A stretch of 64,000 bases of DNA from an uncultured Clostridium sp. (GTDB taxonomy: Bacteria; Bacillota; Clostridia; TANB77; CAG-508), in assembly GCA_947648905.1 (NCBI GenBank), contig CANSPP010000007.1, forward strand, positions 11,158 through 75,157, written 5' to 3'. The notes under the pieces are model-generated. The model had not been told where the DNA came from, searched no databases, and saw only the letters and a program-made list of their open reading frames with translations. Of the stretch, positions 12,683-57,097 are shown piece after piece; position 1 is the stretch's first letter; each line of letters opens with the position of its first letter. A program made the position numbers and the translations under genes.

Positions 12683-12713
12683 TGTCCAATTGGGGACGTT
12701 TCTCTCTTGGACA
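12683..12713. repeat. GGGGACG-core palindromic repeat, subfamily A, solo copy
   Basis: TGTCCAATTGGGGACGTTTCTCTCTTGGACA, with stem TGTCCAA/TTGGACA. Sits just upstream of the Cof hydrolase RBS. Confidence 0.85.
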
Positions 12714-12885
12714 TTTGCCATATTTAAGATATTTTTCGACATTCTTATTATATATTTAAACTTTTTAAATTGCAATTTATTTTTGCTAAAAATTTCCTGT
12801 TTATTTTTTCTCTTTTTTGCAGATTATAGTATTAGAAAAAGCAAAGGTTTTTTCTATATGTAATATTACAGGAGGTGAAAAAACA

Positions 12886-13083
12886 ATGGCAAACTCAAGT
12901 AACAAAAAATTAGTTCCAGAAGCTATGACTGCTTTAGATAAATTCAAATATGAAGTAGCTAGTGAAGTTGGTGTTAACCTAAAAGACGGATATAATGGTG
13001 ATATATCTGCTAGAGACGCTGGAAAAATCGGTGGACAAATGGTTAAAAAAATGATAGAACAAGCTGAAAGAAACATGAAATAG
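12886..13083 (+). CDS. small acid-soluble spore protein, alpha/beta type
   Basis: ATG 12886 after an AGGAGGTG RBS. MANSSNKKLVPEAMTALDKFKYEVASEVGV...GGQMVKKMIEQAE is a typical alpha/beta SASP. Confidence 0.9.
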   Translation: MANSSNKKLVPEAMTALDKFKYEVASEVGVNLKDGYNGDISARDAGKIGGQMVKKMIEQAERNMK

Positions 13084-13147
13084 TTAAACTTTTAAATCAT
13101 TTTGCAGGAAGTTAAATTTTGTTTTTATATATTTTTAGAAATACATA

Positions 13148-13180
13148 AAGGCAGGATTTGATTTCCTGCCTTCTTTTTGT
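13148..13180. terminator. bidirectional rho-independent terminator (SASP / hpf)
   Basis: Stem AAGGCAGGA ... TCCTGCCTT followed by a T-run. Confidence 0.8.
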
Positions 13181-13190
13181 TTTTTACTTA

Positions 13191-13718
13191 TTATGCTTCT
13201 GGTTCTACTAAACCATAATTTTTTCCATCTTTTAATCTATGCACAACATTTACTTTTCCTGTTTCAACATTTATAAATGCTAGGAAATTGTGTGTTGGTT
13301 TTTCTTGTAGTTTTAAAACTGCATCTTCTGGTAACATTGGTTTTATTTCATAGTATGATGTTTTTACTATTTCATCTTTTATTTCAGTTGTTTGTTCATT
13401 TGCAACTTCCATTGTTCTTATTGATGCGTCTTTCATCATTTTTTCTCTTTTTGTTTTTGCTTTTCTTATTTGTCCTTCTAATATGTCTATATCTTTATCA
13501 ATAGATGCATACATATCTTTATCTTCTGTTACTGCTCTGTATTTTTCTCCATTTGCTGTAACATAGATTTCTGCTATTTGCTCATTTTTTTCTGTTCTTA
13601 AAGTAACTTCTGCCTCTGCATCTTCGAAATATTTATCTATTCTGTCTAATTTTCTTTCTACATAATCGTTGATTGCTTCTGTTATCTTTAGTTCCTTTCC
13701 TGTTATTTTTATTTTCAT
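13191..13718 (-). CDS. hpf: ribosome hibernation promoting factor (long HPF)
   Basis: 175 aa. S30AE N-domain (MKIKITGKELKITEAINDYVERK) plus a C-terminal dimerisation domain. Confidence 0.9.
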   Translation of the reverse strand: MKIKITGKELKITEAINDYVERKLDRIDKYFEDAEAEVTLRTEKNEQIAEIYVTANGEKYRAVTEDKDMYASIDKDIDILEGQIRKAKTKREKMMKDASIRTMEVANEQTTEIKDEIVKTSYYEIKPMLPEDAVLKLQEKPTHNFLAFINVETGKVNVVHRLKDGKNYGLVEPEA

Positions 13719-13812
13719 AAAAATCGCTCCTCTCTTTTTCGTTTTTCTACATAGATTATATTTTTATTATATACATTAATTTTTCTATTGTCAACTTTTA
13801 TTTTTTGTTTCG

Positions 13813-13900
13813 AAAATCTGCCAATGGGGACGGACCTTCGCATTTTCTTTTTTTAATATTAAAAATCTGCCAAAAAGGTCCGTCCCCATTGGCAGATTTT
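13813..13900. repeat. GGGGACG-core repeat, subfamily B, inverted pair (MITE-like)
   Basis: CTGCCAATGGGGACGGACC (13818..13836) and its exact reverse complement GGTCCGTCCCCATTGGCAG (13877..13895). The right copy is itself a hairpin (AAAATCTGCCA...TGGCAGATTTT) directly after the recO stop. Confidence 0.9.
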
Positions 13901-13912
13901 CAAAATAAATTT

Positions 13913-14624
13913 CTAATATTCTTTTTCCAGCTTTTCATTAAAATAAATTTTTGTTACTAACTTAAATTCTTCTAAAGCTTCATCTTTCAAATTAAATGAG
14001 TATAGCTTTTTAGGTGGTGCTGTTACTGTATACTTTATTGCATTTAGTGTACTTTCACTTATTGCAATCGTACTTGTATCTTGTTTGCCACATATTTTAC
14101 ATTTTAATCCATTTTCTTTTATACTAAAGTATGTTAAATTTTCTTTTTCTTTGCAACTTGTACATTCTTGTATTTGAGGTGTAAATCCCAATATACATAA
14201 TAGGCGCAATTTAAATACACCCATTACCATATCCAAATTTTTATCAGTTTCTGATATGGTATATAGTGTATTTAACAATAGTTGCAATATTCTGTAGCAA
14301 TTTTGATTTTCGTGTGTTACGTCTTGCACAATTTTATTTATATGTACAGCATATTGTAATTTATCTAAGTCTATTCTAAGATTATAAAATACTTCTATTG
14401 GTTCTACTGAGTTTATATGATATGTTTGTGAGCCTTTGTATACTAAATATTCCCCAAAGCTAAATATCTGTGTTCCAGCCAAAAGAGCACTTTTAGGTCT
14501 TCGTGCTCCTTTGGCAACACATGATATTTTTCCGCAAGTTAGGAGTTAGTATTGTTAGCATTTTGTCAAAGTCTCCTACATTACTTTCTGATAATACTAT
14601 TCCATTTATTTTCGTATTCGCCAT
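13913..14624 (-). CDS. recO: DNA repair protein RecO, interrupted by a +1 frame break at CGG 14532..14534
   Basis: ATG 14624 gives MANTKINGIVLSESNVGDFDKMLTILTPNL, then CGG. Skipping the C continues GKISCVAKGARRPKSALLAGTQIF... into track ORF 13913..14482. Total 236 aa, with the C-terminal Cys4 region present. Confidence 0.85.
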
Positions 14625-14730
14625 CTTTAACTTCTATTCCTTCTTCTATTTTTTCTATTTGTCTTAGTTCCATAAATGCATTGATGTCACCTGTGTTTTT
14701 AAATGTTTCCCACGCTATTTTTTTAATCAT
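14581..14730 (-). CDS. YqzL-family small protein
   Basis: 49 aa (MIKKIAWETFKNTGDINAFMELRQIEKIEEG...) behind an AAGGAGAG RBS. It sits between era and recO, as yqzL does in Bacillus. Too short for the ORF track. Confidence 0.6.
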   Translation of the reverse strand: MIKKIAWETFKNTGDINAFMELRQIEKIEEGIEVKDGEYENKWNSIIRK

Positions 14731-14806
14731 AAGCTTACTCTCCTTTGTTTAAAGTTTTACCTTTAATTTTATCTTTTGCCTTTTTATTGTTTTTTATACA
14801 ATTATA

Positions 14807-15715: not shown

Positions 15716-15820
15716 ATTTACTCCTTGTTTTATTTTTCATACTTCTATATTATACACCATTTTTTTGCTAAATTTGTAGAATTTACGAAATTATTTAATT
15801 TTCTTTTTAGAATATCAAAA

Positions 15821-15851
15821 CCTGCCAAAAAGGTCCGTCCCCTTTGGCAGG
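15821..15851. repeat. GGGGACG-core repeat, subfamily B, solo copy (terminator position)
   Basis: CCTGCCAAAAAGGTCCGTCCCCTTTGGCAGG lies 14 nt downstream of the glycosyltransferase stop. A T-run follows it on the minus strand. Confidence 0.85.
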
Positions 15852-15864
15852 CTGCATTTTTATA

Positions 15865-17157
15865 TTATGCATATGCTTGACGTTTTTTAAAGCTAAGTAA
15901 ATTTGTAATTTCGCTTTCTGTATTTTTAGCTTTTTTAGTTTTCTTTGCTCTTTCTTGTTCAAGTTCTCTTTTTTGTTTTTCTGCCATTGATTGACAAATT
16001 GCTTTTTGATAAGTAAAATGAGTGTCTTGTGCTATTTTGCTCCAATTATATTCATTTCTTACTTTATTTTTGGCTTTTTTAGTAATTTCACTGCAAAGTT
16101 TATGGTCATATAATAATTCTAGTATTGAATCTGCAATTGAATTTGGATTTCCACAATATGCTTTCATTCCGTTTACTCTGTGGTCTACTATTTCGTTTAA
16201 TCCGCCAATGTCTGACACTACTATTGGATTTTCTGATAACATTGCTTCTAGTGCAACTATTCCAAATGGTTCGTATGTACTTGGGAATACTGCTATGTCT
16301 GCTGCCTTGTACATCCTTTGTACATCTTTTCCATTCATATATCCTGCAAAGTATACTTTATCTCTTATTCCCATTGCATTTACTTGGTTCTGCAATTCTT
16401 GTTGCATTCCACCTTTTCCACATATTACAAGTTTAGCATCGTGATATCCATTTAAAATTTTAGGCATTGCTGATATTAGGTGTTGTATTCCTTTTTCATA
16501 TACTAGTCTTCCCATAAATAGTATTATTTTTTCGTTGTCCATTGCATATTTTCTTCTAAAATTATAGTCTCTTTCTATTCCATTAAATAATCCTAGGTTT
16601 ACTCCATTTGGTATTACATTTATTTTTTCATATGGTAATCCAAATAGTCTCTGTAATTCACCTTTCATGTAGTTGCTGTTTACTATTACTTCTGCTGATT
16701 CGTATGTTAGCATCCATTCTGTATCGTTTATATATCTTTGTTGCTCGGTGTGTATTCCGCTGTTTCTTCCTGCTTCTGTTGCATGTATTGTTGCTACTAT
16801 TGGTATGTTGTATGAATTTTTTAGTGTTTTTGCTGCATATGCTACTAGCCAATCGTGTGCATGTATTACATCAAAATTCCCTTGTTCTGCCATTATTTCG
16901 TTTGCTTTTGCTACTAAATTAAAGTTTAATTGCATTACCCAGTCTATGAAGTTATTAGGATTTATCATATAGTTGTCTACTCTATATACTTTTACTCCTT
17001 TATCATCTTCAAAATATGGTGCATCTCCATCTTTGTATGTGATTACTGTTACATCGTGTCCGTCTTTTAACAAAGTTCTTGATATATCATATACTACTCT
17101 AGCAATTCCTCCTACTACTCTTGGGGGATATTCCCATGTTAACATTAGTATTTTCAT
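15865..17157 (-). CDS. GT4-family glycosyltransferase (glycogen-synthase-like fold) with a Lys-rich C-terminal tail
   Basis: Start chosen at MKILMLTWEYPP (ATG 17157). GT-B motifs are present, including EPFGIVALEAM. Confidence 0.8.
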   Translation of the reverse strand: MKILMLTWEYPPRVVGGIARVVYDISRTLLKDGHDVTVITYKDGDAPYFEDDKGVKVYRVDNYMINPNNFIDWVMQLNFNLVAKANEIMAEQGNFDVIHAHDWLVAYAAKTLKNSYNIPIVATIHATEAGRNSGIHTEQQRYINDTEWMLTYESAEVIVNSNYMKGELQRLFGLPYEKINVIPNGVNLGLFNGIERDYNFRRKYAMDNEKIILFMGRLVYEKGIQHLISAMPKILNGYHDAKLVICGKGGMQQELQNQVNAMGIRDKVYFAGYMNGKDVQRMYKAADIAVFPSTYEPFGIVALEAMLSENPIVVSDIGGLNEIVDHRVNGMKAYCGNPNSIADSILELLYDHKLCSEITKKAKNKVRNEYNWSKIAQDTHFTYQKAICQSMAEKQKRELEQERAKKTKKAKNTESEITNLLSFKKRQAYA

Positions 17158-17244
17158 TGATATACTTCCTTTCTCTTTTTTACATTTTCTTTTGTTTTTT
17201 GACAATTTTTTCATTTTAATATATTCTATACAAAAAATTAAAAA

Positions 17245-17280
17245 AAGTAAATGCTTTTTTGAAAAACATTTACTTTTTTT
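17245..17280 (-). terminator. terminator after the WG-repeat gene
   Basis: Stem AGTAAATG ... CATTTACT flanked by A/T runs. Confidence 0.7.
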
Positions 17281-17324
17281 CTAATTTTTTATTTGATTAT
17301 CTTATTAATCTTACTTTTTTGTTG

Positions 17325-18809: not shown

Positions 18810-18824
18810 TTTTATACCCCCTAA

Positions 18825-19967
<1,143 letters not shown>

Positions 19968-23865: not shown

Positions 23866-23912
23866 GGTCCGTACCAAAAATGTTTGTTGGGACAAAAAAG
23901 AAACGTCCCAAA
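23866..23912. repeat. degenerate copies of the repeat family
   Basis: AGGTCCGTACC is followed by TTGGGACAAAAAAGAAACGTCCCAAAA, with stem TGGGAC/GTCCCA. Sits downstream of folA. Confidence 0.5.
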
Positions 23913-23920
23913 ATATCCCT

Positions 23921-27052: not shown

Positions 27053-27136
27053 TGTTTTCCTCCCATTTTAGCATATCTCTTTGACTGTTTTTTATTCTAT
27101 CACATTAATTTTTTAGTTTCAAGATTTTTGAAACTT

Positions 27137-27160
27137 TTTAGGTCTGTCCCCAAAAATCTA
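27137..27160. repeat. degenerate half copy, subfamily B
   Basis: TTTTAGGTCTGTCCCCAAAAATC resembles AAAAGGTCCGTCCCCATTGG. Confidence 0.4.
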
Positions 27161-33800: not shown

Positions 33801-34466
33801 TTTCTTTAGTTCTTTTATAATTACACTATAATCATTTGCCATTAAAATCGCAGTTCCTGCAACTAAAATATTTGCTCCAGCTTCTTTTACTTTTTCAGCT
33901 GTATTTAAGTTTATCCCGCCATCAGCTTCTATATCAATTTCAATCTTGTTTTCGTCTATATATTTTCTTAAAGTTGATATTTTTTGCACCATATCTGTTA
34001 ACAATGTTTGACCACCTTTGCCTGGTTCTACTGTCATAACTAAGCACATATGGATATGTGGTAGAAATTCATATACTTCTTCTATTTTCGTATCTGGCTT
34101 TACAGAAATTCCTACTTTGCAATTATTTTCTTTGATATATTTAATTAATTCATATACTTCTTCTTTGCTTTTGCAAGCCTCTAGATGAAATGTTATTATG
34201 TTTGGCTCTACTGCTAAAAAGTCATCAATTGCACTTTTAACATCCTCTACCATTAAATGTACATCTAGTGGCAAATTTGAAATTCTTCTTATATATGATG
34301 CATATTCTAGCATTTTTTGATAAGTGTCTTTTTCTACAAATTTTCCATCCATAACGTCAATGTGAAAATAATCTGTTTTTCCCGCTTCTAATTCTAAAAA
34401 AGCTGTATTTTCGTCTTCCTTTTTTAGTGATAATATTGATGTTGATACTTCAAATTCATTTACCAT
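33798..34466 (-). CDS. rpe: ribulose-phosphate 3-epimerase
   Basis: 222 aa. Contains the HIDVMDGKFV and HLMV motifs. Confidence 0.93.
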   Translation of the reverse strand: MVNEFEVSTSILSLKKEDENTAFLELEAGKTDYFHIDVMDGKFVEKDTYQKMLEYASYIRRISNLPLDVHLMVEDVKSAIDDFLAVEPNIITFHLEACKSKEEVYELIKYIKENNCKVGISVKPDTKIEEVYEFLPHIHMCLVMTVEPGKGGQTLLTDMVQKISTLRKYIDENKIEIDIEADGGINLNTAEKVKEAGANILVAGTAILMANDYSVIIKELKK

Positions 34467-35353
34467 TTTTTCCTACTCTCCTTTTCTTTTAGTTCTTCAT
34501 AAATTTTGCAAAATCTTGTATATCTTTCTTCTGTTATAATTCCTTTTTTTATCGCCTCTTTAATTCCGCAATTCTCCTCTTTTATATGCGTGCAACCTAC
34601 AAATTCGCAATTTTCTATATTTTCCTCAAACTCCTTAAAATATTTATCTAAGTCTTTACTCTCTATTTCGGAAATATCAAAAGTAGAAAATCCAGGTGTA
34701 TCTGCTATAAAAGTATTATCATCAATTTCATAAAGTTTTATTGCTGTTGTAGTATTTTTACCACGCTTATTCTTCTTGCTAATTTCACCTTCTTGTGTAA
34801 CATCTGTATTAAAAATTGCATTAATTAACGTAGATTTACCAACTCCAGAATTTCCAGAAAAAGCATTAATGTTATTTTTTAAAGCCTTCTTCAAGTCTTC
34901 TACTCCCTTTTGGCTTTTTGCTTCTGTTTCTATAACTTTATACCCAACTTTTTCATATACAGCTTTTATATTCTTAAATTGCTTATCTTTATCTAAATCA
35001 GTCTTATTTAAAACAATTAAAGCCTTAACCCCTAAAAACTCTACAAAAGCAAGTTGTTTATCAAGCATAAGTAAATCTGGTTTTGGGTCTTTGCTAGACA
35101 CCACAAACACAATCTGTGTTATATTCGCAAGCTTTGGTCTTTTTACATACACCTCTCTTGGCTTTATCTCATCAATTACAGCTATTTTCTTATCTTCGTC
35201 AACAATATCTATCTCTACTTTATCTCCAACAACAGGGCTAATCTCTTCTTTCTTGAATTTTCCTCTTGCTGTTGCCTCATACATTTGCTTTGTTGGCTTT
35301 TCTACTGCTATTTTATATAAATTTGAAATACTCTCTACTATGATTCCTTGCAT
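34460..35353 (-). CDS. rsgA: ribosome small subunit-dependent GTPase A
   Basis: 297 aa. Circularly permuted GTPase (NKTDL ... GNSGVGKST) with a C-terminal zinc-binding Cys/His cluster. Confidence 0.93.
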   Translation of the reverse strand: MQGIIVESISNLYKIAVEKPTKQMYEATARGKFKKEEISPVVGDKVEIDIVDEDKKIAVIDEIKPREVYVKRPKLANITQIVFVVSSKDPKPDLLMLDKQLAFVEFLGVKALIVLNKTDLDKDKQFKNIKAVYEKVGYKVIETEAKSQKGVEDLKKALKNNINAFSGNSGVGKSTLINAIFNTDVTQEGEISKKNKRGKNTTTAIKLYEIDDNTFIADTPGFSTFDISEIESKDLDKYFKEFEENIENCEFVGCTHIKEENCGIKEAIKKGIITEERYTRFCKIYEELKEKESRKKW

Positions 35354-35370: not shown

Positions 35371-35410
35371 CCAATTTGGGACATTTGGGGACGTTTCCTT
35401 TTTGTCCAAT
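35371..35410. repeat. GGGGACG-core repeat, subfamily A, rearranged copy
   Basis: CCAATTTGGGACATTTGGGGACGTTTCCTTTTTGTCCAAT, between the prkC stop and the rsgA start. Confidence 0.75.
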
Positions 35411-35520
35411 TCTTGAACACATTTATTTACTTTTATTATATTTGAATTGTAGCATTATTATTTTATTTTGTCAAAATTTTAAGGGAACGAATAATCCATC
35501 GCTCCCTCCTTAATTAATTT

Positions 35521-38317: not shown

Positions 38318-38394
38318 ATATTCACCTCTTTTTCTTTCCATTTCCTTTATATCACAACTTTGTTTTTTTTGCAATATTTTCTATATAAATTTGA

Positions 38395-38467
38395 TGTCCA
38401 ATTGGGGACGTTTCCTTTCTGGACATTTTTAAAGTATGTCCAAGAAAGAAACGTCCCCAATTGGACA
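38395..38467. repeat. GGGGACG-core repeat, subfamily A, inverted pair
   Basis: TGTCCAATTGGGGACGTTTCCTTTCTGGACA (38395..38425) and TGTCCAAGAAAGAAACGTCCCCAATTGGACA (38437..38467) are separated by 11 nt. They lie in the divergent stp/mutS2 intergenic region. Confidence 0.9.
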
Positions 38468-38520
38468 TTTTCCCATTTTTCCTGTATAATAGTAGCAGTA
38501 TAAATTTAGGAGATTTTATT

Positions 38521-40920
38521 ATGAGCACATATTTAGATAAATTAGAATTTAATAAGATATTAGAAAATTTAGAAAACTACTGTATAACAATTCAAGGAAA
38601 GACCTTGGCAACCAGCTTAGTTCCTAGTAATGTAACAGATACAGTACGAATTTTATTAAGTGAAACTGAGGAAGCTGTAAACTTAATTTATAGAAATTCT
38701 ATACCAAGTTTTTATGAGATTAATCCAATTGATGTAGAACTAAAGAAACTTGAAAGTGGTATTTCTCTTTCTTGTAAAGAGCTTTTGAATTTAAACAAAA
38801 TTTTCAAAACAGCTTTTAATTTAAAAGAATATTTTGATAAAGATTTTTTAGATTTAAATGATTTTCCTATTTTGTCTTCTTTATTTGAAAAACTTTATTT
38901 TAATAAGAATATTATGGATAAAATTGATTCTTGTATATTAGAAGTGTCCAATAAAGAAACGTCCCCAATTGGACAAATTGATGATAAGGCTTCTTCCACT
39001 TTGCAATCTATTAGGAAGAAAAAGAGAAATTTAGAATTAGATATTCGTGAAAAGTTGAATAATATGGTTCATTCTTCTAGCTATTCTAAATATATTCAAG
39101 AGAACATTATTACTATTCGTAATGAACGTTTTGTTATACCTGTAAAAGAAGAGTACCGTTCACAGATAAAAGGATTTGTCCATGATATTTCAAATGCTGG
39201 TTCTACTGTGTTTATTGAGCCTATTGCAGTTTTTGAGATGAATAATGATTTAAGTAAATTGAAAATTGAAGAGGAAATTGAGATAGAGAAAATTTTGCAA
39301 GAACTTAGTTCTTTATTTGCGCCATATGTTGAAGAACTTCAGTCTTCTCTTGATTTAATTGGAAGATTAGACTTTATTTTTGCAAAAGCAAAATATTCTA
39401 AAGAGATTAAAGGAATTACTCCAAAAATTAATAGCAAAAAAGAAATAAATTTAATTAATGCAAGACATCCTCTAATTGCTAAAGAAAAAGCTGTTCCTAT
39501 TTCCGTAAATTTAGGAATTAATTTTTCTACACTTTTAATTACTGGACCAAATACTGGTGGTAAGACTGTCGCTTTAAAAACTGTTGGACTGCTTTGTTCT
39601 ATGGCTTGTAGTGGTCTTAATATTCCAGCAGATGAGAAGTCTAGTGTTTATGTTTTTTCTAATATTTTCTCAGATATTGGAGATGACCAAAGTATTTCAG
39701 ATTCTTTGAGTACTTTTTCTTCTCATATGATTAATCTTGTTGAAATATTAAAAAATGTAACTGAAAATTCTCTTGTTTTGGTTGATGAACTGGGCTCTGG
39801 TACTGACCCTATTGAAGGTGCAAATCTTGCTATTGCTATTTTGGCTCATTTAAAAAATGTTGGAGCTTTAACAATTGCAACTACTCATTATCAAGAGTTG
39901 AAACAATATGCACTTGTAACTGATGGTTTTGAAAATGCTTCTGTTGAGTTTGATGTTTCTACTTTAACTCCAACCTATAAGCTATTGGTTGGTATTCCTG
40001 GCAAGAGTAATGCTTTTGAAATTAGTAAAAATCTTGGATTGGACGATAACATTATTTCTGAGGCAAAATCTCTTATGACTTCTAACCAAGTTAATATAGA
40101 AGAATTGCTTAAAAATATCTACGATAACAAAGCTGAAATTGAAAAGGAAAAGGCTGAAATTGATAGTAAATTACAAAACATTTCAACTTTAGAAAGCAAA
40201 TTGCAAAGCGACTACGAAACTTTAAAAAATAAAGAACAAGAACTGATTTCTAATGCTAAAATTAAAGCCAGAAATATTTTATTAGACGCCAAAGACGAAG
40301 CAAATGAAATTATAAAGCAGATGAATACGCTCTCTTCTTCTGATAGAAAACTTGCAGATTCTATGAGAAATAAGCTAAATGAAAAAATCAAAAATACTAA
40401 TAACATAGAAGAAAATCACAATTCTTCAGATAAAGAAAGAGTTCAAACTCTTACACCAAATGACATCAAACTTAATATGGAAGTTTTTGTTAGATCTTTT
40501 GAAAAAAATGGAATTGTTGTTTCTCACATTTCTAAATCTAATGAAGTTCAAGTTCAAATTGGAATGCTTAAAACAAATATAAAATTAAGTGACTTGGAAT
40601 TAGTAAAAACAAATTCAGCAAAGAAAACTCCAAAAGTTCAAACTTCTGGATATGGTAGCTTTAATAAATCAAAAACTGTTAAATCTGAGGTTAATGTTAT
40701 TGGATTAAATGTTGAAGAAGCACTTTTCGTAGTTGATAAATTTTTAGATGACTGTAGTTTAGCTAAACTTAAAACTGTTCGCATTGTTCACGGCAAAGGT
40801 ACTGGCAAATTAAAAAACAGCATTCATCAATTTTTGAAAACTAATTCTCATATTGATTCTTATCGATTAGGCACTTATGGAGAAGGCGAATCTGGAGTTA
40901 CTGTTGTTACTCTCAAATAA
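38521..40920 (+). CDS. mutS2: endonuclease MutS2 (carries an in-frame repeat insertion)
   Basis: ATG 38521 after a TAGGAG RBS (MSTYLDKLEFNKILE). Walker A GPNTGGKT and a C-terminal Smr domain. The track's start at 38461 reads through an intergenic repeat and is rejected. Confidence 0.95.
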   Translation: MSTYLDKLEFNKILENLENYCITIQGKTLATSLVPSNVTDTVRILLSETEEAVNLIYRNSIPSFYEINPIDVELKKLESGISLSCKELLNLNKIFKTAFNLKEYFDKDFLDLNDFPILSSLFEKLYFNKNIMDKIDSCILEVSNKETSPIGQIDDKASSTLQSIRKKKRNLELDIREKLNNMVHSSSYSKYIQENIITIRNERFVIPVKEEYRSQIKGFVHDISNAGSTVFIEPIAVFEMNNDLSKLKIEEEIEIEKILQELSSLFAPYVEELQSSLDLIGRLDFIFAKAKYSKEIKGITPKINSKKEINLINARHPLIAKEKAVPISVNLGINFSTLLITGPNTGGKTVALKTVGLLCSMACSGLNIPADEKSSVYVFSNIFSDIGDDQSISDSLSTFSSHMINLVEILKNVTENSLVLVDELGSGTDPIEGANLAIAILAHLKNVGALTIATTHYQELKQYALVTDGFENASVEFDVSTLTPTYKLLVGIPGKSNAFEISKNLGLDDNIISEAKSLMTSNQVNIEELLKNIYDNKAEIEKEKAEIDSKLQNISTLESKLQSDYETLKNKEQELISNAKIKARNILLDAKDEANEIIKQMNTLSSSDRKLADSMRNKLNEKIKNTNNIEENHNSSDKERVQTLTPNDIKLNMEVFVRSFEKNGIVVSHISKSNEVQVQIGMLKTNIKLSDLELVKTNSAKKTPKVQTSGYGSFNKSKTVKSEVNVIGLNVEEALFVVDKFLDDCSLAKLKTVRIVHGKGTGKLKNSIHQFLKTNSHIDSYRLGTYGEGESGVTVVTLK
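38945..38975. repeat. GGGGACG-core repeat, subfamily A, copy inside the mutS2 coding sequence
   Basis: TGTCCAATAAAGAAACGTCCCCAATTGGACA is translated in frame as VSNKETSPIGQ. Confidence 0.9.
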
Positions 40921-44147: not shown

Positions 44148-44272
44148 ATTTCATCACCTTTTTTGTTTTTTAGCTTTTAGATTATACCATATTTACTAGC
44201 TAAAAACAAGTCTCCACTTCTTGCCAGTGGATACGGTCCTTCTTGCTATGCTATCAACAAAAGTAATAATGA

Positions 44273-44303
44273 TGTCCAAAAAGGAAACGTCCCCAATTGG
44301 ACA
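44273..44303. repeat. GGGGACG-core repeat, subfamily A, solo copy
   Basis: TGTCCAAAAAGGAAACGTCCCCAATTGGACA lies 5 nt downstream of the clpC stop. A degenerate B-like stretch, TTGCCAGTGGATACGGTCC, is at 44221..44239. Confidence 0.85.
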
Positions 44304-44307: not shown

Positions 44308-46758
44308 CTAATTTGATACTACTACTTTTTCATCTTTTACTCCAATTTTAGCTGGAGTATCTTTCTTCAAATTACCATCTAAAATTTCTTCAGCAAGCCT
44401 ATCTTCAAGTACACTTTGAATAGTTCTACGTAATGGTCTTGCTCCAAAGTTTTTATCAATTCCCTTATTTGCAATTAATTTTTTTACTTCTGGTTCTAGC
44501 TCTATTTTTATCTTTTGAGCTTCTAGTCTATTTACCACTTCTTTTAGCATTATATCAATTATTTGATTTACTTCATTGTCAGTTAATTTATGGAATACAA
44601 TTATTTCGTCAATACGATTAATAAATTCTGGGCGTAGTTCACGTTTCAATGTTTCCATTACTTGTTTTTTTGTTTCTTCATATTCTTTTTTGCTACTATC
44701 TTCTGTTTCTCCTGTTTTTGTAAATCCTAATGTTTTTTTGTCTGTTATTAGTCTTGCTCCTATGTTTGATGTCATTATTATTACTGTGTTTTTAAAGTTG
44801 ACTGTTCTTCCGTTTGAGTCTGTAAGCCTTCCGTCTTCTAGTATTTGTAGCAACATATTCATTACGTCTGGATGTGCTTTTTCTATTTCGTCAAATAAGA
44901 TTACTGAATATGGTTTTCTTCTTATTTTTTCTGTTAGTTGACCACCTTCGTCAAAGCCTACATATCCTGGAGGTGAGCCTATTAATTTTGATACTGAGTG
45001 TGGTTCCATATATTCTGACATATCTACTCTTATCATAGAGCTTTCATCTCCAAATAGTACCTCTGCTAATGCTTTTGATAATTCTGTTTTTCCTACCCCT
45101 GTTGGTCCTAAGAATAGGAATGAACCTATTGGTCTGTTTGGGTCTTTTAGTCCCACTCTTCCTCTTCTTATTGCTTTTGCTACTGCTGATACAGCTTCTT
45201 CTTGTCCAATTACTCTTTCGTGTAAGTTTTTTTCAAGATTTTTTAATTTTTCGTTTTCGTCCTCTGTTATTTTATTTGCTGGTATTCCAGTCCAACTCGC
45301 AATTACTTCTGCAATATTTTCCTCTGTTATATTTGTAATTGCTTTTGTTTTTTTGTTTTTCCATTTTTTTAGTTCTGCTTCATATGTTTCTTTTAATTCT
45401 TTTTGTTTGTCACGTAGCTTAGCTGCTTTTTCAAACTTTTGTATTCTAACAGCTTCTTCTTTGTTTTTTGCTACTTCTTCTATTTCTTCTTCTAATTTTT
45501 TTAGTTTGTCTGGTTCTGTATATGATTTCAATTTTGCTTTTGATGCTGCCTCATCTATTAAGTCTATTGCTTTGTCTGGCAAATATCTATCATTTATATA
45601 TCTTGTTGACATTTTTACTGCTGCTTCAATTGCTTCGTCTGTTATTTTTACTCCGTGATGTGCTTCATATTTGTCTCTAATTCCTTGTAATATTTTTATT
45701 GTGTCTTTTGAGCTTGGTTCGTTTACAGTTACTGGGCTAAATCTTCTTTCTAGTGCTGCATCTTTTTCTATATATTTTCTGTATTCATTTAAAGTTGTTG
45801 CTCCTATTAACTGAATTTCTCCTCTTGCAAGTAGTGGTTTTAAGATATTTGCTGCATCAATTGCACCTTCTGCTGCTCCTGCTCCTACTATTGTATGAAT
45901 TTCGTCTATAAATAAAATTATGTCTTTTGCTTTTTTCACTTCATTTAATGCCTTTTTTATTCTTTCTTCAAAATCTCCTCTATATTTACTTCCTGCAACC
46001 ATTCCAGAGATATCCATTGTTACCACTCTTTTTTCTTTTAATATTTCTGGAACATCTCCTGCAACAATTTTTTGTGCTAAACCTTCTACTGCTGCTGTTT
46101 TTCCAACTCCTGGTTCACCTATTAAACAAGGATTGTTTTTTGTTCTTCTTGATAATATTTGTATTACCCTTTCTATTTCATCTTTTCTTCCTATTATTGG
46201 GTCTAGCTTTCCTTCTTCTGCCTTCTTTGTAAGGTCTTCTCCGAATTGATTTAATGTTGGTGTTGAATTGTAACTTCCTTTTCCCTTTCCTCCTTTGGCT
46301 TTATCTTCAGACTTTGCGCTTTCTTCTCCTTCATTTATTACTTTTACTATTTCATTATATAATTTTGGTATATTTACATCTAATTCTAATAAAATTCTTG
46401 TTGCTATACTATCCGCTTCTTTTATCATTCCTATTAGAAGATGCTCTGTTCCTATATAATTAAATCCAAGTTTTCGTGCTTCTATAAATGAATTCTCAAT
46501 AACTCTTTTTGTTCTAGGAGTAAATCCAAAAGTTCCATCAATTGGGGCTTCATTACCCAATAATTCCACAATTTTATCTATAATCATATCTGATGAAATC
46601 TCTTGATTTTCCAAAACTTTATATGCAATTCCACTTCCTTCTTTAGAAAGTCCATATAAAATATGCTCTGTACCTATATAATTATGCCCTAACTCCATAG
46701 CCAAACTGCTTGCTAGCTCTATAGCCTTTTTAGCTCTATTTGTAAATTTATATGTCAT
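44308..46758 (-). CDS. clpC: ATP-dependent Clp protease ATP-binding subunit ClpC
   Basis: 816 aa. Clp N-repeat, two AAA+ modules and a UVR-like linker. Confidence 0.97.
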   Translation of the reverse strand: MTYKFTNRAKKAIELASSLAMELGHNYIGTEHILYGLSKEGSGIAYKVLENQEISSDMIIDKIVELLGNEAPIDGTFGFTPRTKRVIENSFIEARKLGFNYIGTEHLLIGMIKEADSIATRILLELDVNIPKLYNEIVKVINEGEESAKSEDKAKGGKGKGSYNSTPTLNQFGEDLTKKAEEGKLDPIIGRKDEIERVIQILSRRTKNNPCLIGEPGVGKTAAVEGLAQKIVAGDVPEILKEKRVVTMDISGMVAGSKYRGDFEERIKKALNEVKKAKDIILFIDEIHTIVGAGAAEGAIDAANILKPLLARGEIQLIGATTLNEYRKYIEKDAALERRFSPVTVNEPSSKDTIKILQGIRDKYEAHHGVKITDEAIEAAVKMSTRYINDRYLPDKAIDLIDEAASKAKLKSYTEPDKLKKLEEEIEEVAKNKEEAVRIQKFEKAAKLRDKQKELKETYEAELKKWKNKKTKAITNITEENIAEVIASWTGIPANKITEDENEKLKNLEKNLHERVIGQEEAVSAVAKAIRRGRVGLKDPNRPIGSFLFLGPTGVGKTELSKALAEVLFGDESSMIRVDMSEYMEPHSVSKLIGSPPGYVGFDEGGQLTEKIRRKPYSVILFDEIEKAHPDVMNMLLQILEDGRLTDSNGRTVNFKNTVIIMTSNIGARLITDKKTLGFTKTGETEDSSKKEYEETKKQVMETLKRELRPEFINRIDEIIVFHKLTDNEVNQIIDIMLKEVVNRLEAQKIKIELEPEVKKLIANKGIDKNFGARPLRRTIQSVLEDRLAEEILDGNLKKDTPAKIGVKDEKVVVSN

Positions 46759-46777: not shown

Positions 46778-46806
46778 CTGCCATTGGGGACGGAGATTAA
46801 TGGCAG
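46778..46806. repeat. GGGGACG-core repeat, subfamily B, solo copy between mcsB and clpC
   Basis: CTGCCATTGGGGACGGAGATTAATGGCAG, with stem CTGCCATT/AATGGCAG. Confidence 0.85.
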
Positions 46807-46810: not shown

Positions 46811-47806
46811 TTAATTTTCTTTTATAATTTGCTTAATTACTTCTGCTCTTTTTATTTCTAGTTCTTCTTTATCATATTTTTGCCCTAGATATTTTTGTAA
46901 ATTTGCTGGTTTACTATATAAATATAATTTTTGCACTTTAACATCTGTAAGCTCGTCTAATATTCCTAAGTCCACTCCTAGTTTTATATTTGATAAAAGT
47001 TCTATTTCTTCTTCGCTTGATATTTTTCTGCAATTTGATAATATTCCAAAACTCCTATATATTAAATCACTTAGGTTTATTTCGTCTTGTGCTATTAATT
47101 TTCTTGCTTGTCTTTCTTGCTCAATTACTGTTTGCACAATTACTTTTAAGTTTTTTACTATTTCTTTTTCGCTTATTCCTAGTGTTTTTTTATTTGAGAT
47201 TTGATACATGTCCCCTTTGCCTTTATAGACTTCTTTTATGTTGATGCCAAAATCTCCAATTGCATCAAATACTTTTCTTGTATTTCTCGTTTTAGAAATA
47301 GCTGGTAAATGTACTCTAACAGAAGCTTTAAGTCCTGTTCCTATATTGCTTGGTGAACTTGTTAGGTATCCATATTTTTTATTTACTGCATATCCTAACA
47401 ATTCCCCTATTTTTTCGTCTAATTCTATTGCTAAATTTAGTGTATTTTCTAGGTCTAACCCAGCACTAAATACTTGTATTTTTAGATGGTCTTCTCCACC
47501 TATCATAATACAAATATTTTCTTCATCATTTATTAGAATACTTCCATATCTTTTTATTGAAAAGCTTGAACTTATTAATTCTTTTTCTACTAGGCTCTTT
47601 TTTGTTATTTCATCCATATCTTGTAATCTTAAAAATTTTAGTCCATATCCAATATCATACAAGTTTTCTTTTACTTTATTTTCTAACTTTTCTATTTCTT
47701 CTTTGCTTTTTAAGTTAAATTTGAATTCACTTAAATTTCTTGAAAATTTGATTTTCGTACTTTTTACTACATCTGAATTTTCGTTACTATATAAATACCA
47801 ATTCAT
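46811..47806 (-). CDS. mcsB: protein arginine kinase McsB
   Basis: ATG:guanido phosphotransferase domain. Start preferred at MNWYLYSNENSD (47806), because the track start at 47836 lies inside a repeat element. Confidence 0.9.
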   Translation of the reverse strand: MNWYLYSNENSDVVKSTKIKFSRNLSEFKFNLKSKEEIEKLENKVKENLYDIGYGLKFLRLQDMDEITKKSLVEKELISSSFSIKRYGSILINDEENICIMIGGEDHLKIQVFSAGLDLENTLNLAIELDEKIGELLGYAVNKKYGYLTSSPSNIGTGLKASVRVHLPAISKTRNTRKVFDAIGDFGINIKEVYKGKGDMYQISNKKTLGISEKEIVKNLKVIVQTVIEQERQARKLIAQDEINLSDLIYRSFGILSNCRKISSEEEIELLSNIKLGVDLGILDELTDVKVQKLYLYSKPANLQKYLGQKYDKEELEIKRAEVIKQIIKEN

Positions 47807-47828
47807 TTTTTCAATTCCTTTCTTTAAT

Positions 47829-47891
47829 CCTGCCATGGGGGACGGTCCTTTTTAGCAGATTTCTGCCATTAAGGTCCGTCCCTGTTGGCAG
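47829..47891. repeat. GGGGACG-core repeat, subfamily B, inverted pair between mcsA and mcsB
   Basis: CCTGCCATGGGGGACGGTCCTTTTTAGCAG and CTGCCATTAAGGTCCGTCCCTGTTGGCAG. The first copy supplies the ATG used by the ORF track for mcsB. Confidence 0.85.
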
Positions 47892-47892
47892 A

Positions 47893-48900: not shown

Positions 48901-48930
48901 TTTATTTTCTCCCTTCATTTGTAAGTTGAC

Positions 48931-48947
48931 TTTGACTTTCTTTGACC
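48931..48947 (-). promoter_or_regulatory. CtsR operator (promoter-proximal)
   Basis: The minus strand reads GGTCAAAGAAAGTCAAA, matching the CtsR heptad direct-repeat consensus (A/GGTCAAA NAN A/GGTCAAA). It lies just downstream of the -10. Confidence 0.85.
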
Positions 48948-48956
48948 TACAATATT

Positions 48957-48984
48957 ATTATACTACCCTTAAAAAATTTTTCAA
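48957..48984 (-). promoter_or_regulatory. sigma-A type promoter of the ctsR operon
   Basis: Minus strand: TTGAAA, 16 nt, TATAAT. Flanked by the two CtsR boxes. Confidence 0.6.
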
Positions 48985-48991
48985 GGGCTTT

Positions 48992-49008
48992 TTTGACTTT
49001 CTTTGACC
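48992..49008 (-). promoter_or_regulatory. CtsR operator (promoter-distal)
   Basis: An identical 17-mer, GGTCAAAGAAAGTCAAA, upstream of the -35. Confidence 0.85.
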
Positions 49009-49031
49009 TTTATCGTTCTTTTTCTTTTTAT

Positions 49032-52665: not shown

Positions 52666-52769
52666 TTCTCATCGCCCCTTCTATCTTTTGTTTTATCATT
52701 ATTCTACTTTTCAAAAAGGTTTTATGTCAATAAGTAATACGCTAATATAAAAATATTTTAGTTGACAAA

Positions 52770-52805
52770 AGGTGGACAAAACCGTATTTTGGTATATGTC
52801 CACCT
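52770..52805 (-). terminator. hairpin after the GGGtGRT gene
   Basis: Stem AGGTGGACA ... TGTCCACCT. The T-tail on the minus strand is weak. Confidence 0.5.
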
Positions 52806-52850
52806 CTATTATTTTTATTATTATACTTTCTTAAAATCCAGTATTATCAA

Positions 52851-53852: not shown

Positions 53853-53876
53853 TTTTTATTCCTCCTATTTTTAATT

Positions 53877-54569: not shown

Positions 54570-54691
54570 TTTTCTTGCTCCTTTCAATTTCTTAGTTTTT
54601 AGTTCTTTTATTTTTCTTTTAGGTTAATTCTAGGTTGACCTAAATCTAATAACATAATTGTTGGGTGGATGTTTTATTTTCCACCTGATTT

Positions 54692-55420
54692 TTATTGTTC
54701 TTTCATTTTTTTAAGTTCATCTTCTGATAGTAATATTTGATTTTTCTTTTTCTTTTTTGGTTTGATTTCTTCTTTAATTTCTACTACTTCCTGTTTTTCT
54801 ACATTTTTCATTGCTTCATTTTCTTCTGTTGTATTATATGCTACCATATTTCCAACATCTCTTATGTAAATTTTATCTTCATATATATCTGTTTTTGATG
54901 TGGTCTTATTGGCCTGAACTTGGGCTATATATCTATTTATTATTTGTCTATCTTTATTGTTTACTTGTTCTGGTCCTATATTTAAATATTGATATCTCCA
55001 TATTATGTGTCTTTCATAACTATCAAATGGGCTACTTAATAAATCATTATAATTGTATTCTACTTTGAAATTTAAATCTTCTATTGACATAGTCAGGTTA
55101 GACCACAATGGGTCTAAGCCTGTTTCTTTAAATTCATTTCTTAAGTTTTTTATTTGCTCATATATGATTTTTACAAATTGCATATATTCATTTTCATCAA
55201 GATTAAATTTATTAGGTATTTCATATACGTTTACTGGTTTCTTTTTTAGTATTCCTTTTGGTATATAATAAAAGTATAGTTCTCCAGATTGTTCTCCATT
55301 TTCTTTGTCTATGACTGAAGCATATAGGTACAGTTGGTTCCATTTTTCTGGAATCATATAATAGATTTTCGTTTGTATATTTTCATATATTTTTCTTATT
55401 TTTTTTGTATGATGTAACAT
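54692..55420 (-). CDS. possible YezG/DUF600-like immunity protein with a Lys/Glu-rich C-terminal extension
   Basis: 242 aa. The pattern WNQLYLYASV...SGELYFYYIP...LRNEFKETGLDPWSNLTMSI...FKVEYNYND resembles DUF600 immunity proteins. Assignment is from memory only. Confidence 0.35.
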   Translation of the reverse strand: MLHHTKKIRKIYENIQTKIYYMIPEKWNQLYLYASVIDKENGEQSGELYFYYIPKGILKKKPVNVYEIPNKFNLDENEYMQFVKIIYEQIKNLRNEFKETGLDPLWSNLTMSIEDLNFKVEYNYNDLLSSPFDSYERHIIWRYQYLNIGPEQVNNKDRQIINRYIAQVQANKTTSKTDIYEDKIYIRDVGNMVAYNTTEENEAMKNVEKQEVVEIKEEIKPKKKKKNQILLSEDELKKMKEQ

Positions 55421-55425
55421 ATTTT

Positions 55426-56976
55426 TTATTCCTTATCTAATAAGCTTGTTCCTGTCATTTCTTCTGGCTGTTCTAAATTCATTAAATCAAGCATTGTTGG
55501 TGCTAAGTCTGCTAACTTTCCACCATCTTTTAGTTTTAGTTTTGTGTTAGCTGTTACTAGCATTAATGGTACTGGGTTTGTTGTGTGTGCTGTGTGTGGC
55601 TCTCCTGTTTTGTAGTCTATCATTTGCTCAGCATTTCCGTGGTCAGCTGTAATTAGCATATTTCCTTGTTTTTCTTCTACTAATGCTACTACTTTTCCTA
55701 CACATTCGTCTACTGCTTCTACTGCTTTTATTGCTGCTGTTAGACTTCCTGTGTGCCCTACCATATCTGTATTTGCATAATTTAAAATTATTGCATCATA
55801 TTTATCAGATTTTATTGCTTCTAATACTTTTTCTGTTACTTCATATGCACTCATTTCTGGTTTTTGGTCATATGTTTCTACTTTTGGTGATGGTACTAAT
55901 ATTCTGTCTTCTCCTTCATATTGTTTTTCTTCTCCACCATTAAAGAAGAATGTAACGTGTGCATATTTTTCTGTTTCAGCTATTCTTAGTTGTGTATATC
56001 CTTTTCCACTTATATATTCTCCAAATGTATTTGCTAATGGTTCTTTTTTGAATGCAATATGAACATTTGGCATTGTTTCATCATAATTTGTAAAGCATAC
56101 AAAATATAGATTTAAATCTTTCTTAGTTTCAAATCCATCAAAGTTTGGATCAACTAATGCTCTTGTTATTTCTCTTGCTCTATCTGGTCTAAAGTTGAAG
56201 AATATTACAGAGTCATTTTCTTCTATTTTTGCTATTGGCTCTTTTCCATTGCAAATTATTGTTGGTTCTATAAATTCATCAAATACTTCTTTTTGGTATG
56301 AGTCTTCTATTGCTTTTACACTACTTCCTGCTTTATTTCCTTCTCCTTTTACTAAAGCATCATAGCATTTCTTTACTCTTTCCCATCTTTTATCTCTATC
56401 CATTGCATAAAATCTTCCTGAAATTGATGCTATTTTTCCAACTTTTTTCTCTGCCATCTTTTCTTCTAGTTTCATTACATAGTTTTCAGCTGATGCTGGT
56501 GGTGTATCTCTTCCGTCTAAGAAGCAGTGTACATATACATCTTCAAAATCTCTTCTTTTTGCCATTTCTAACAATCCATATAGATGTCTGTTATGGCTGT
56601 GTACTCCACCATCTGATACTAATCCTAGTATGTGTAATTTTGAATTGTTCTTTTTGCAGTTTTCAATTGCTGATATAAATTCTGGATTTGTAAAAAAGTC
56701 TCCATCTTCTATTGATTTTGTTATTCTTGTTAACTCTTGGTATACTATTCTTCCTGCTCCTATATTTGTGTGTCCTACTTCTGAATTACCCATTTGTCCT
56801 TCTGGTAGTCCTACTGCTAATCCACTTGTGTTTATATCTACTGTACTGTATTTTTTCATTAGTTTATCTATATTAGGTGTTTTGGCTAATTTAATAGCAT
56901 TTCCATCTGTATTTTTATTGTCTCCAAATCCATCTAATATCATTAGCATTGTTAGTTTATCTTTCATTTCTACCAT
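55426..56976 (-). CDS. gpmI: 2,3-bisphosphoglycerate-independent phosphoglycerate mutase
   Basis: 516 aa (start may be ATG 56967). Typical iPGM, with LMILDGFG and GNSEVGHTNIGAGR. Confidence 0.96.
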   Translation of the reverse strand: MVEMKDKLTMLMILDGFGDNKNTDGNAIKLAKTPNIDKLMKKYSTVDINTSGLAVGLPEGQMGNSEVGHTNIGAGRIVYQELTRITKSIEDGDFFTNPEFISAIENCKKNNSKLHILGLVSDGGVHSHNRHLYGLLEMAKRRDFEDVYVHCFLDGRDTPPASAENYVMKLEEKMAEKKVGKIASISGRFYAMDRDKRWERVKKCYDALVKGEGNKAGSSVKAIEDSYQKEVFDEFIEPTIICNGKEPIAKIEENDSVIFFNFRPDRAREITRALVDPNFDGFETKKDLNLYFVCFTNYDETMPNVHIAFKKEPLANTFGEYISGKGYTQLRIAETEKYAHVTFFFNGGEEKQYEGEDRILVPSPKVETYDQKPEMSAYEVTEKVLEAIKSDKYDAIILNYANTDMVGHTGSLTAAIKAVEAVDECVGKVVALVEEKQGNMLITADHGNAEQMIDYKTGEPHTAHTTNPVPLMLVTANTKLKLKDGGKLADLAPTMLDLMNLEQPEEMTGTSLLDKE

Positions 56977-56987
56977 CCTTTTCCCTT

Positions 56988-57097
56988 GAAGGTATTTTTT
57001 GGGACAGTGCTAAAAAACACCTTCTTCGTCATTTATATATTTATTTATTTTTTCTTAAATTCCTAGATGTTTTTTTGCACTGTCCCAAAAAACACCT
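56988..57097. repeat. related palindromic repeat, subfamily C, inverted pair
   Basis: GAAGGTATTTTTTGGGACAGTGCTAAAAAACACCTTC (56988..57024) and AGATGTTTTTTTGCACTGTCCCAAAAAACACCT (57065..57097) are inverted copies. They lie between the tpiA stop and the gpmI start. Confidence 0.75.

Follow-up and report, generated by a model that had tools for sequence, protein, structure and literature searches.

What are the short hairpins that recur along a 64,000-nt stretch of DNA from an uncultured Clostridium sp. (contig CANSPP010000007.1 of assembly GCA_947648905.1), and how did they spread? This whole stretch, positions 1-64,000, is referred to here as the window and was the search space for repeat units. 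A sequence-only reading had described a dispersed family of near-identical palindromes, standing solo or as inverted pairs, with no associated transposase in the window. The analysis presented here indicates that the repeats are very probably non-autonomous repetitive extragenic palindromic (REP) elements, in the REPIN style, of a REP-associated tyrosine transposase (RAYT) system, which best fits the helix-turn-helix (HTH)-bearing sort known as TIRYT. A REP/RAYT system of this sort is new for the host phylum.

The window has a G+C content of about 29-30%, and within it 13 clear units of 26-33 nt were identified (five of type A, six of type B, and two of type C) along with four degenerate ones, a density of approximately one unit per 4-5 kb. 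Each unit consists of a 6-13 bp stem and a 5-17 nt loop that opens with (TT)GGG(G)AC. The core CCAATTGGGGACG occurs five times in the window and a CCAATGGGGACG-type core four times (allowing one mismatch), and neither occurred in dinucleotide shuffles (0 in both cases). Strong profile matches start at 12683, 38395, 38437, 38945, and 44273 for type A (E about 1e-10) and at 13818, 13865, 15821, 46778, 47830, and 47862 for type B (E from 1e-6 to 4e-9), and type C forms a separate inverted pair (56990-57022 and 57065-57097). A search by structure only, requiring a GGGAC core within a perfectly paired stem of 6 bp or more, resulted in 12 units in the window compared with a mean of 0.7 over 20 shuffles, and the hairpin units reported earlier are thus real. 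The loops in this perfect-stem search measured 11-20 nt and no CCA tail was present. The support for the degenerate copies listed earlier was uneven, with E values of 2e-4 at 35371, 0.03 in the 23866/23889 region, 0.19 at 44221, and 2 in the region of 27137.

The three unit types share one architecture, namely TGTCCAA / TTGGGGACGTTTCYYTY / TTGGACA for type A, (C)CTGCCAA(A) / GGGGACGGACCT / (T)TTGGCAG(G) for type B, and (AGG)TGTTTTTT / GGGACAGTGCW / AAAAAACA(CCT) for type C. Units accordingly start at the 5' side with TGTCC, CTGCC, or AGGTG. Between the subfamilies the stem changes come in pairs, and the start of the loop, GGG(G)AC(G), is constant. A short GTCC..GGAC hairpin inside type A was flagged by a terminator scan; type B gives no support for this pairing, and the outer stem was chosen over it because the outer stem covaries. 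When folded as single-stranded DNA, solo units gave z-scores of -3.1 to -5.0, and the four inverted doublets of the window (13804-13909, 38394-38468, 47829-47892, and 56990-57097) gave long hairpins with z-scores of -6 to -11. All four doublets, which confirm the inverted pairs of the sequence-only reading, are oriented head-out, and 1-42 nt separate their units. Intergenic DNA makes up 16% of the window yet holds 18 of the 31 GGGAC/GTCCC sites, and 12 of the 13 clear units are extragenic. The copies had been placed at gene ends, in leaders, and between cistrons; the unit at 38945-38975 instead lies in frame within mutS2. A search of the whole window with Rfam 15 at the gathering threshold returned 0 matches.

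The family is dispersed well beyond the window, and its copies are not parts of a larger annotated element. A collection containing one genome per species was searched with the exact type A 18-mer, which resulted in at least 110 stretches from at least 40 assemblies. At least 39 of these assemblies are species-level metagenome-assembled genomes (MAGs) of 25-35% G+C labelled as uncultured Clostridia, Eubacteriales, or Clostridium, originating from human, chicken, mouse, and ruminant guts; a single Chloroflexia match among the matches listed looks like chance. The unit profile identified at least 188 copies (E < 1e-3) in these loci and the window combined. Among the matches listed, 58 pairs of adjacent units are arranged '+-' (head-out), and for 57 of these the distance is within 1 kb, compared with nine direct pairs and no '-+' (tail-out) pair below 1.2 kb. 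The outer T of TGTCC marks a sharp onset of sequence conservation, which fades approximately 35-46 nt further in. The resulting doublets span 64-805 nt and have conserved inverted ends and variable centres that are often palindromic themselves and sometimes recur within and between genomes (for example in the related loci L010, L058, L040, and L035). When 38 doublets were examined for target duplications of k = 2-9 bp, matches were not above those of permuted flanks.

Two observations on doublet structure were made alongside. At one pair of orthologous 152-nt doublets (L020:3659-3810 and L084:4249-4400) the flanks are 87% identical and the arms are the same, and the 61-nt centre is inverted. 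In addition, composite doublets of 277-376 nt were found (L046:4286-4652, L013:3213-3583, L049:6774-7050, and L090:631-1006) in which units are nested: next to the outer A unit there is a further one, whose loop is GGGGACAGAC or GGGGACGGAC, and the centre that they enclose is a palindrome common to these doublets. Unit types therefore combine into larger, mobile-looking modules.

The related genomes also contain the likely partner protein. In seven related loci, a Y1 transposase of 257-264 amino acids is bracketed by units, and in two of these (L065 and L089) elements of about 1035 nt carry inverted units at their ends and encode a protein of 257-259 amino acids starting at TTG. This protein matches the Pfam model Y1_Tnp with 64 bits (cut-off 23), and its best NCBIfam model is REP_Tyr_transpos (NF047646) with 69.4 bits, compared with 20 bits for IS200. 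Residues H60, H62, Y119, N123, and P124 are invariant in 33 homologues and constitute the HUH motif together with the Y---NP signature of class 2; the spacing from HuH to Y is 59 residues, within the range of 58-67 given for subclass 2.1 by Quentin et al. 2018 (PMC6006769). An AF2 model (pLDDT 84) was compared with the PDB using Foldseek, and the best match was chain 4ER8_A, E. coli TnpA_REP with a REP hairpin (E = 1.9e-6, TM 0.67), with the IS608, ISDra2, and IS200 transposases ranking below it. The only PDB sequence match of the family profile was likewise 4er8 (E = 0.056), with the HUH and Y motifs aligned; a single-sequence PDB search gave a spurious match only. Identity to 4ER8 is about 15% over the core, and the protein has approximately 100 extra C-terminal residues. 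Residues 140-258 are predicted to be all-helical, with block-mean pLDDT values of 72-90 in the full model. At a permissive Pfam threshold this C-terminus matched only a sub-threshold HTH_26 (E = 0.0037), and its stand-alone model (pLDDT 59) was too poor to search with.

The genomic position of the RAYT gene appears to be conserved. Five loci from different genomes (L065, L089, L117, L119, and L121) share the order radical-SAM gene, small open reading frame (ORF), RAYT, and radA, with RAYTs that are 52-69% identical to the L065 copy and inverted units that bracket the gene in all five. Apart from L065 and L089, the homologues examined were three on long contigs (P0028, P0072, and P0113; 54-69% identical), which occupy the same radA site, where the small ORF ends in ..HDFLFQEITFGKKK and radA and disA follow directly downstream. 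The stems around the radA-adjacent RAYTs differ from each other (TGTCCCA/TGGGACA, TGTCTCA/TGAGACA, TGTCCT/AGGACA, and TGTCCA/TGGACA). A protein search resulted in 1215 RAYT relatives at E <= 1e-20. Many RAYT genes are on contigs of about 1.0 kb, which suggests that assemblies break at the flanking repeats, and mcsB genes are found on contigs of about 1.1 kb. Public contigs of the window's species were also seen to start or stop exactly at REP sites.

The association between transposase and hairpin extends to more distant homologues. A metagenome scan with the family profile identified 80 loci with relatives of 33-52% identity in sequences of 28-58% G+C, and the flanks of 60 RAYT loci contain 129 distinct units with a GGGGAC[GA] core. 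Upstream units are '+' in 63 cases and downstream units '-' in 55, with 11 other arrangements, and the gene therefore lies between units that are inverted relative to each other. Across the 60 loci the loop consensus is GGGGACGGTTCT, and the stems vary by locus (GTGTCAA/TTGACAC, AACACAA/TTGTGTT, AAGACAG/CTGTCTT, GAAACGC/GCGTTTC, and GAGTCAA/TTGACTC). For a covariation test, units were chosen by the core motif alone and aligned without gaps. Paired cells amounted to 67.7% compared with 44.9% after shuffling, and the covariation score was 0.556 compared with 0.213 after shuffling, with 0 of 500 shuffles reaching the observed score; controls in which the partners were slid by 1-3 columns scored 0.17-0.21. 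Double-sided changes were found in eight of the nine stem pairs. This covariation of the stem around a constant loop is good evidence, at the level of sequence, that the protein family would recognise a hairpin with a fixed loop.

Having identified loci syntenic with the window at 75-84% nucleotide identity, we compared empty and filled sites, and occupancy differs between species. The site of the 12683 unit is empty in two of these loci (L035 and L021), the first of which also lacks the 13818 doublet at the orthologous site. The junction of mcsA and mcsB is empty in L045 and holds the doublet in L203-L206, of which L203 and L204 are sister species. The junction of mcsB and clpC has a single unit in the window, but L203 has two there and L204 at least three, and the A unit after clpC (44273) is absent in both sister species. 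A 277-nt doublet occurs in L069 at the orthologous position neighbouring the 23889 remnant, and a 155-nt doublet in L014 at the site orthologous to 38394-38468. As a separate observation, an insert of about 500 nt at L045:2810-3350 replaces the single B unit between mcsB and clpC; it contains a truncated A unit and a small ORF, and another inverted repeat (ATGTCGCATTRAGTTCGTTTGTCTATGCGACAT) forms its two ends.

Several results weigh against assigning the repeats to a REP/RAYT system. A RAYT within the 64-kb window was not detected with tblastn or with the profile on six-frame translations, in agreement with the earlier statement that no transposase is associated with the repeats there, and the syntenic radA and small ORF are also absent from the window. 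The link between repeats and transposase for the window's own copies therefore rests on related species. The 69.4 bits obtained with REP_Tyr_transpos are below the curated cut-off of 80 bits, and the GTAG (GT[AG]G) at the 5' foot of the hairpin is absent from the units. A comparison of two strains of the window's species, with 99% identity across 5-7 kb, showed no gain or loss at three sites, and only 3-4 of their 56-68 single-nucleotide differences are in REP DNA; change is therefore slow, or movement has stopped. The related loci were selected with the type A 18-mer, which biases how often the different stem variants are seen in other genomes. Finally, mobilisation of the hairpins by the transposase is inferred from homology and anatomy.

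The result from the strain pair would also suit relics of an extinct amplification, in which the RAYT-like gene is now domesticated with another role and the copies are passive. The syntenic, apparently vertically inherited RAYT and the degenerate copies in the window are compatible with this explanation. However, the 31-nt units are near-identical within the genome, unit number varies among sister species, and stems covary with lineage around fixed loops. An identical 18-mer in at least 39 species with a gene divergence of about 20% moreover argues for continuing homogenisation or renewal, and we regard the relic explanation as unlikely. We consider it quite improbable that the repeats are immobile host cis-regulatory elements under selection at each site, such as intrinsic terminators, mRNA stabilisers, or sites for a global regulator, even though some copies are located right past stop codons with T runs after them (15821 and 44273) or abut ribosome-binding sites (12683, 46778, and 35371), the sequence is constant across many species, and positions are stable within species. 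Orthologous junctions in different species are empty or differ in unit number, the copies face either way with respect to transcription (of the 17 entries in Table 1, 7 are '+' and 10 are '-'), one copy is within the mutS2 coding sequence, a transposase gene is bracketed by units in 60 loci, and no Rfam family matches. Co-option of single copies, furthermore, fits a REP/RAYT system too.

The organisation of the doublets raises two other explanations. Classical miniature inverted-repeat transposable elements (MITEs), which are deletion derivatives of a DDE-type insertion sequence moved via its terminal inverted repeats, would resemble the 64-805 nt doublets in having conserved inverted ends of 35-46 nt, a variable interior that is sometimes common to copies and species (L010, L058, L040, and L035), and no coding capacity. 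The DDE-type MITE was rejected because there is no target-site duplication, 2-9 bp matches being not above chance in the 38 doublets. Between such ends no protein was found other than a Y1 HUH transposase, which is not a DDE enzyme, and solo 31-nt units, themselves hairpins, are common. A MITE origin is thus very improbable. The doublets could also be invertons, DNA switches flipped by a site-specific recombinase, as the inverted 61-nt centre in L020 and L084 and the many doublets just upstream of genes might suggest, but we consider this scarcely credible. The window spacers of 1-42 nt are mostly too short for a promoter, solo units are frequent, and no invertase was seen adjoining units, and long inverted repeats can flip a centre through ordinary recombination or re-insertion.

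For a REP/RAYT system, E. coli TnpA_REP and IS608 TnpA serve as models, and by analogy with them we propose that one chromosomal RAYT per specificity would bind the hairpin once it has folded in single-stranded DNA, probably at the replication fork. The RAYT may read the conserved loop together with the shape of the stem, and its HUH/Tyr centre would then cut and rejoin DNA such that units and doublets are copied or moved in trans. Some inserted copies were probably later co-opted by the host. The units after the glycosyltransferase and clpC genes probably serve as hairpin-plus-T-run terminators or mRNA 3' stabilisers; the 15821 unit has a terminator-like look, as TTTT directly follows it on the mRNA strand. 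Similarly, the end of the 38437 unit was probably co-opted as the -35 box for mutS2, since the best promoter match in 10 kb is located at 38462-38490 (+), just ahead of this gene (TGGACA-17-TATAAT, 11 of 12 consensus positions). Both outward TGGACA ends of the 38394-38468 doublet were observed to resemble -35 boxes, at 38462-38490 (+) and 38400-38373 (-). The 38945 unit adds eight residues to MutS2, which are lacking in 15 of 15 aligned homologues (reading ..DENT-- there). This comparison was made by protein search, with no orthologues among the fetched nucleotide loci. The mutS2 ORF (38521-40920, +) is intact despite the in-frame unit, and the insert is probably tolerated. All units and their gene contexts are listed in Table 1.

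Table 1. Hairpin units identified in the window, with supporting evidence and neighbouring genes.
Unit	Positions	Strand	Sequence and support	Context
Type A, solo	12683-12713	+	TGTCCAA-TTGGGGACGTTTCTCTC-TTGGACA	Divergent spacer between a HAD-type hydrolase gene (11777-12661, -) and a small acid-soluble protein (SASP) gene (about 12886-13083, +); between promoter-like TTGCAA-N17-TATAAT (read by eye, not scanned) and the hydrolase ribosome-binding site
Type B, left of doublet	13818-13843	+	CTGCCAATGGGGACGGACCTTCGCAT; 3' arm missing; profile E = 1e-6	
Type B, right of doublet	13865-13895	-	CTGCCAA-TGGGGACGGACCTTT-TTGGCAG; profile, structure search, folding	
Type B, solo	15821-15851	-	CCTGCCAAA-GGGGACGGACCT-TTTGGCAGG; dG = -10.3 kcal/mol, z = -5.0	After the stop codon of a glycosyltransferase gene (15865-17214, -)
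Degenerate A-like remnant	23889-23913	-	TTTTGGGACGTTTCTTTTTTGTCCC; weak support, match 23894-23909, E = 0.03	Adjoined by B-like fragment GGTCCGTACC at 23866
Weak variant hairpin, membership uncertain	27122-27159	-	AGATTTTTG-GGGACAGACCTAAAAAGTTT-CAAAAATCT; 27140-27152 profile E = 2, fold z = -1.7, still a 9-bp hairpin around GGGGACAGACCT	
Rearranged A-type copy, arms swapped	35371-35411	+	CCAATTTGGGACA-TTTGGGGACGTTTCC-TTTTTGTCCAATT; match 35385-35410, E = 2e-4	Just upstream of the rsgA ribosome-binding site (rsgA 34460-35353, -)
Type A, left of 75-nt doublet	38395-38425	+	Spacer 9-11 nt; doublet dG = -32.3 kcal/mol, z = -11.4	Divergent spacer between a PP2C phosphatase gene (-) and mutS2 (+)
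Type A, right of 75-nt doublet	38437-38467	-	Outer end TGGACA, a -35-like box	Same spacer
Type A, inside coding sequence	38945-38975	-	Profile E about 1e-10; in-frame translation EVSNKETSPIGQ	Within mutS2
Possible degenerate B copy	44221-44246	+	TTGCCAGTGGATACGGTCCTTCTTGC; match 44222-44246, E = 0.19, not significant	Overlaps a minus-strand terminator-like hairpin (44231-44213)
Type A, solo	44273-44303	-		Begins 4 nt past the clpC stop codon (clpC 44308-46758, -)
Type B, solo	46778-46806	+		Between mcsB and clpC, directly upstream of the clpC ribosome-binding site
Type B, left of 64-nt doublet	47830-47860	+		Between mcsA and mcsB
Type B, right of 64-nt doublet	47862-47892	-		Abuts the mcsA stop codon
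Type C, left of 108-nt doublet	56990-57022	+	AGGTATTTTTT-GGGACAGTGCT-AAAAAACACCT; doublet z = -11.4	Between tpiA and gpmI
Type C, right of 108-nt doublet	57065-57097	-	Inverted-repeat, structure-search, and folding evidence	

The genes of the window are the ordinary housekeeping genes of a spore-forming Clostridia-type bacterium, mostly encoded on the minus strand, and include era, recO, ctsR-mcsA-mcsB-clpC, dxs, mutS2, prkC, rsgA, clpX, tpiA, gpmI, and a SASP gene. The loop of the type C unit at 56990 resembles the units flanking a distant RAYT homologue in L188. In the clpC operon, an arm of the 47830 unit gives the mcsB ORF a spurious upstream ATG. The start of mcsB as called in several loci (L111-L116, L205, and L206) falls on ATGs in or beyond the doublet, resulting in proteins of 341 or 352 amino acids; the start conserved in L045 is MNWY.., at window position 47806 (region 47806-47836). 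The copies in this operon were considered as CtsR operators and rejected, as the true CtsR boxes are unrelated to them. Two such canonical operators (GGTCAAAGAAAGTCAAA) are positioned around a TATAAT box upstream of ctsR (about 48920-49010, -), an ordinary form of regulation for ctsR-mcsA-mcsB-clpC. Two other repeat-bearing regions of the window were recorded. Five tandem paralogous small genes (130-217 amino acids) at 2259-4885 (-) share the conserved N-terminus MENASKALIMAGG, which shows up as the direct-repeat families D1 and D2, and may encode a pilin-like or other secreted or membrane protein family. An intergenic hairpin module, AAAAAAGAACACTTTTCAAGTGTTCTTTTT (family D4), occurs at 59702-59775, 60828-60901, and 63665-63738 with three paralogous genes of about 340 amino acids (59767-60810, 61189-62208, and 62631-63635) and is unrelated to the REP family.

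For replicators that persist over long periods in bacterial genomes through vertical inheritance, the best case is provided by REP/RAYT systems, which have been studied almost only in Proteobacteria. Their scope would be broadened by a dense and well-defined REP family in gut Clostridia that is linked to a RAYT of a different, probably HTH-bearing kind, and the conserved-loop hairpin is a concrete candidate substrate for TIRYT-class enzymes. Group 1, or subclass 2.1, is the largest RAYT class and has been reported in the literature without REP-like structures and REPINs. The GGGGACG(G/T)TTCT loop, conserved on a lineage-specific stem, may be the missing DNA substrate of this class (TIRYT, subclass 2.1, 'Group 1'), with REPIN-like populations of possibly hundreds of copies in uncultured low-GC gut Clostridia and a RAYT fixed beside radA while the stems co-evolved, a proposal to which we assign slightly less than an even chance. 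If true, it would represent the first REPIN-RAYT-type symbiosis documented in Gram-positive bacteria. There are also practical consequences, in that the repeats break metagenome assemblies (RAYT and mcsB end up on contigs of about 1 kb), give rise to false start codons and lengthened ORFs (mcsB), occur inside genes (mutS2), and are possible sources of terminators and -35 boxes. Masking or modelling of the repeats is therefore advisable when gut MAGs are annotated.

The earlier label for the family, REP/MITE/RPE-like, can be refined by comparison with known systems. Its REP part is borne out as the REP/RAYT type by the Y1 gene bracketed in relatives, its MITE part fails for DDE elements in the absence of target duplications, and the likeness to RPEs extends to the one in-frame copy in a functional-looking mutS2, to which it adds eight residues; RPEs differ in being 100-150 nt long and CGTC-tagged and have no known transposase. 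The CGTC-tagged REPs described by Di Nocera et al. 2013 (PMC3733652) have an unpaired CGTC at one end, a stem of 8-9 bp, a loop of 4-5 nt, and a CCA tail. In the present units CGTC is internal, as the complement of the loop GACG, and the stem and loop sizes do not agree. The same authors noted that intragenic REPs are often in replication and repair genes. BOX, RUP, bcr1, and the Correia MITEs are likewise small, non-coding intergenic inverted repeats that are co-transcribed with their neighbours and can donate promoters or terminators; however, they are DDE-linked and have target duplications, unlike the repeats described here. The IS200/IS605 family and PATEs share the HUH/Y1 chemistry, the recognition of hairpins on single-stranded DNA, the lack of target duplication, and a mechanism that needs no terminal inverted repeats. 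IS200/IS605 elements differ in that their ends are two unlike subterminal hairpins and that they are multi-copy and horizontally mobile, whereas the RAYT described here is syntenic beside radA in five loci and reaches only 20 bits with IS200 models.

Closer similarities are found to the REPIN-RAYT systems of Gammaproteobacteria, such as the E. coli REP/BIME elements with TnpA_REP and the Pseudomonas REPINs. Both have palindromes of 20-40 nt that are mostly extragenic, solo or in inverted doublets folding into long hairpins, several unit families per genome, a RAYT that has its own repeats on either side and a conserved place in the chromosome, and no target duplication, and 4ER8 is the nearest match to the predicted fold. 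A 5' GTAG is typical of canonical REPs, whose RAYTs belong to Groups 2 and 3, and the REPIN literature grants REPINs to those groups alone. The units described here have no 5' GTAG, their conserved motif is in the loop rather than at the foot of the hairpin, and they occur in a spore-forming Gram-positive host. Di Nocera et al. (PMC3733652) also described RAYT-like genes with flanking inverted repeats that share GGGGWSAS and are not REPs; these were named TIRtrons or TIRYTs, and their terminal inverted repeat families 'moderately abundant'. Quentin et al. (PMC6006769) assigned 20 of 26 TIRYTs to TnpA-Y1 subclass 2.1, with HTH-type C-termini, and reported no REP-like secondary structure near subclass 2.1 genes. 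Firmicutes are not mentioned in the text of either paper (PMC3733652 and PMC6006769), and Clostridia appear only for the IS200-type subclass 1.1. The system described here resembles TIRtrons/TIRYTs in that a RAYT-like Y1 gene is flanked by inverted repeats without GTAG and with a G-rich motif, in this case GGGGACGK; in its dispersed singles, dimers, and clusters; and in its long proteins with a C-terminal extension called HTH-like. Relative to GGGGWSAS, the commonest cores GGGGACGG and GGGGACGT match seven and six of the eight positions, respectively, and GGGGACAG matches all eight in L124, L130, L134, L166, and L170 and at position 27146 of the window. The system fits the TIRYT description best, in that GTAG is absent, the motif is of the GGGGAC type, and the protein ends in a long stretch of helices; this match was made by description. 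It differs from the TIRtrons described to date in that its repeats clearly form hairpins, in which the stems covary and the loop is conserved, that they attain a REPIN-like density in gut Clostridia, and that the gene is syntenic beside radA.

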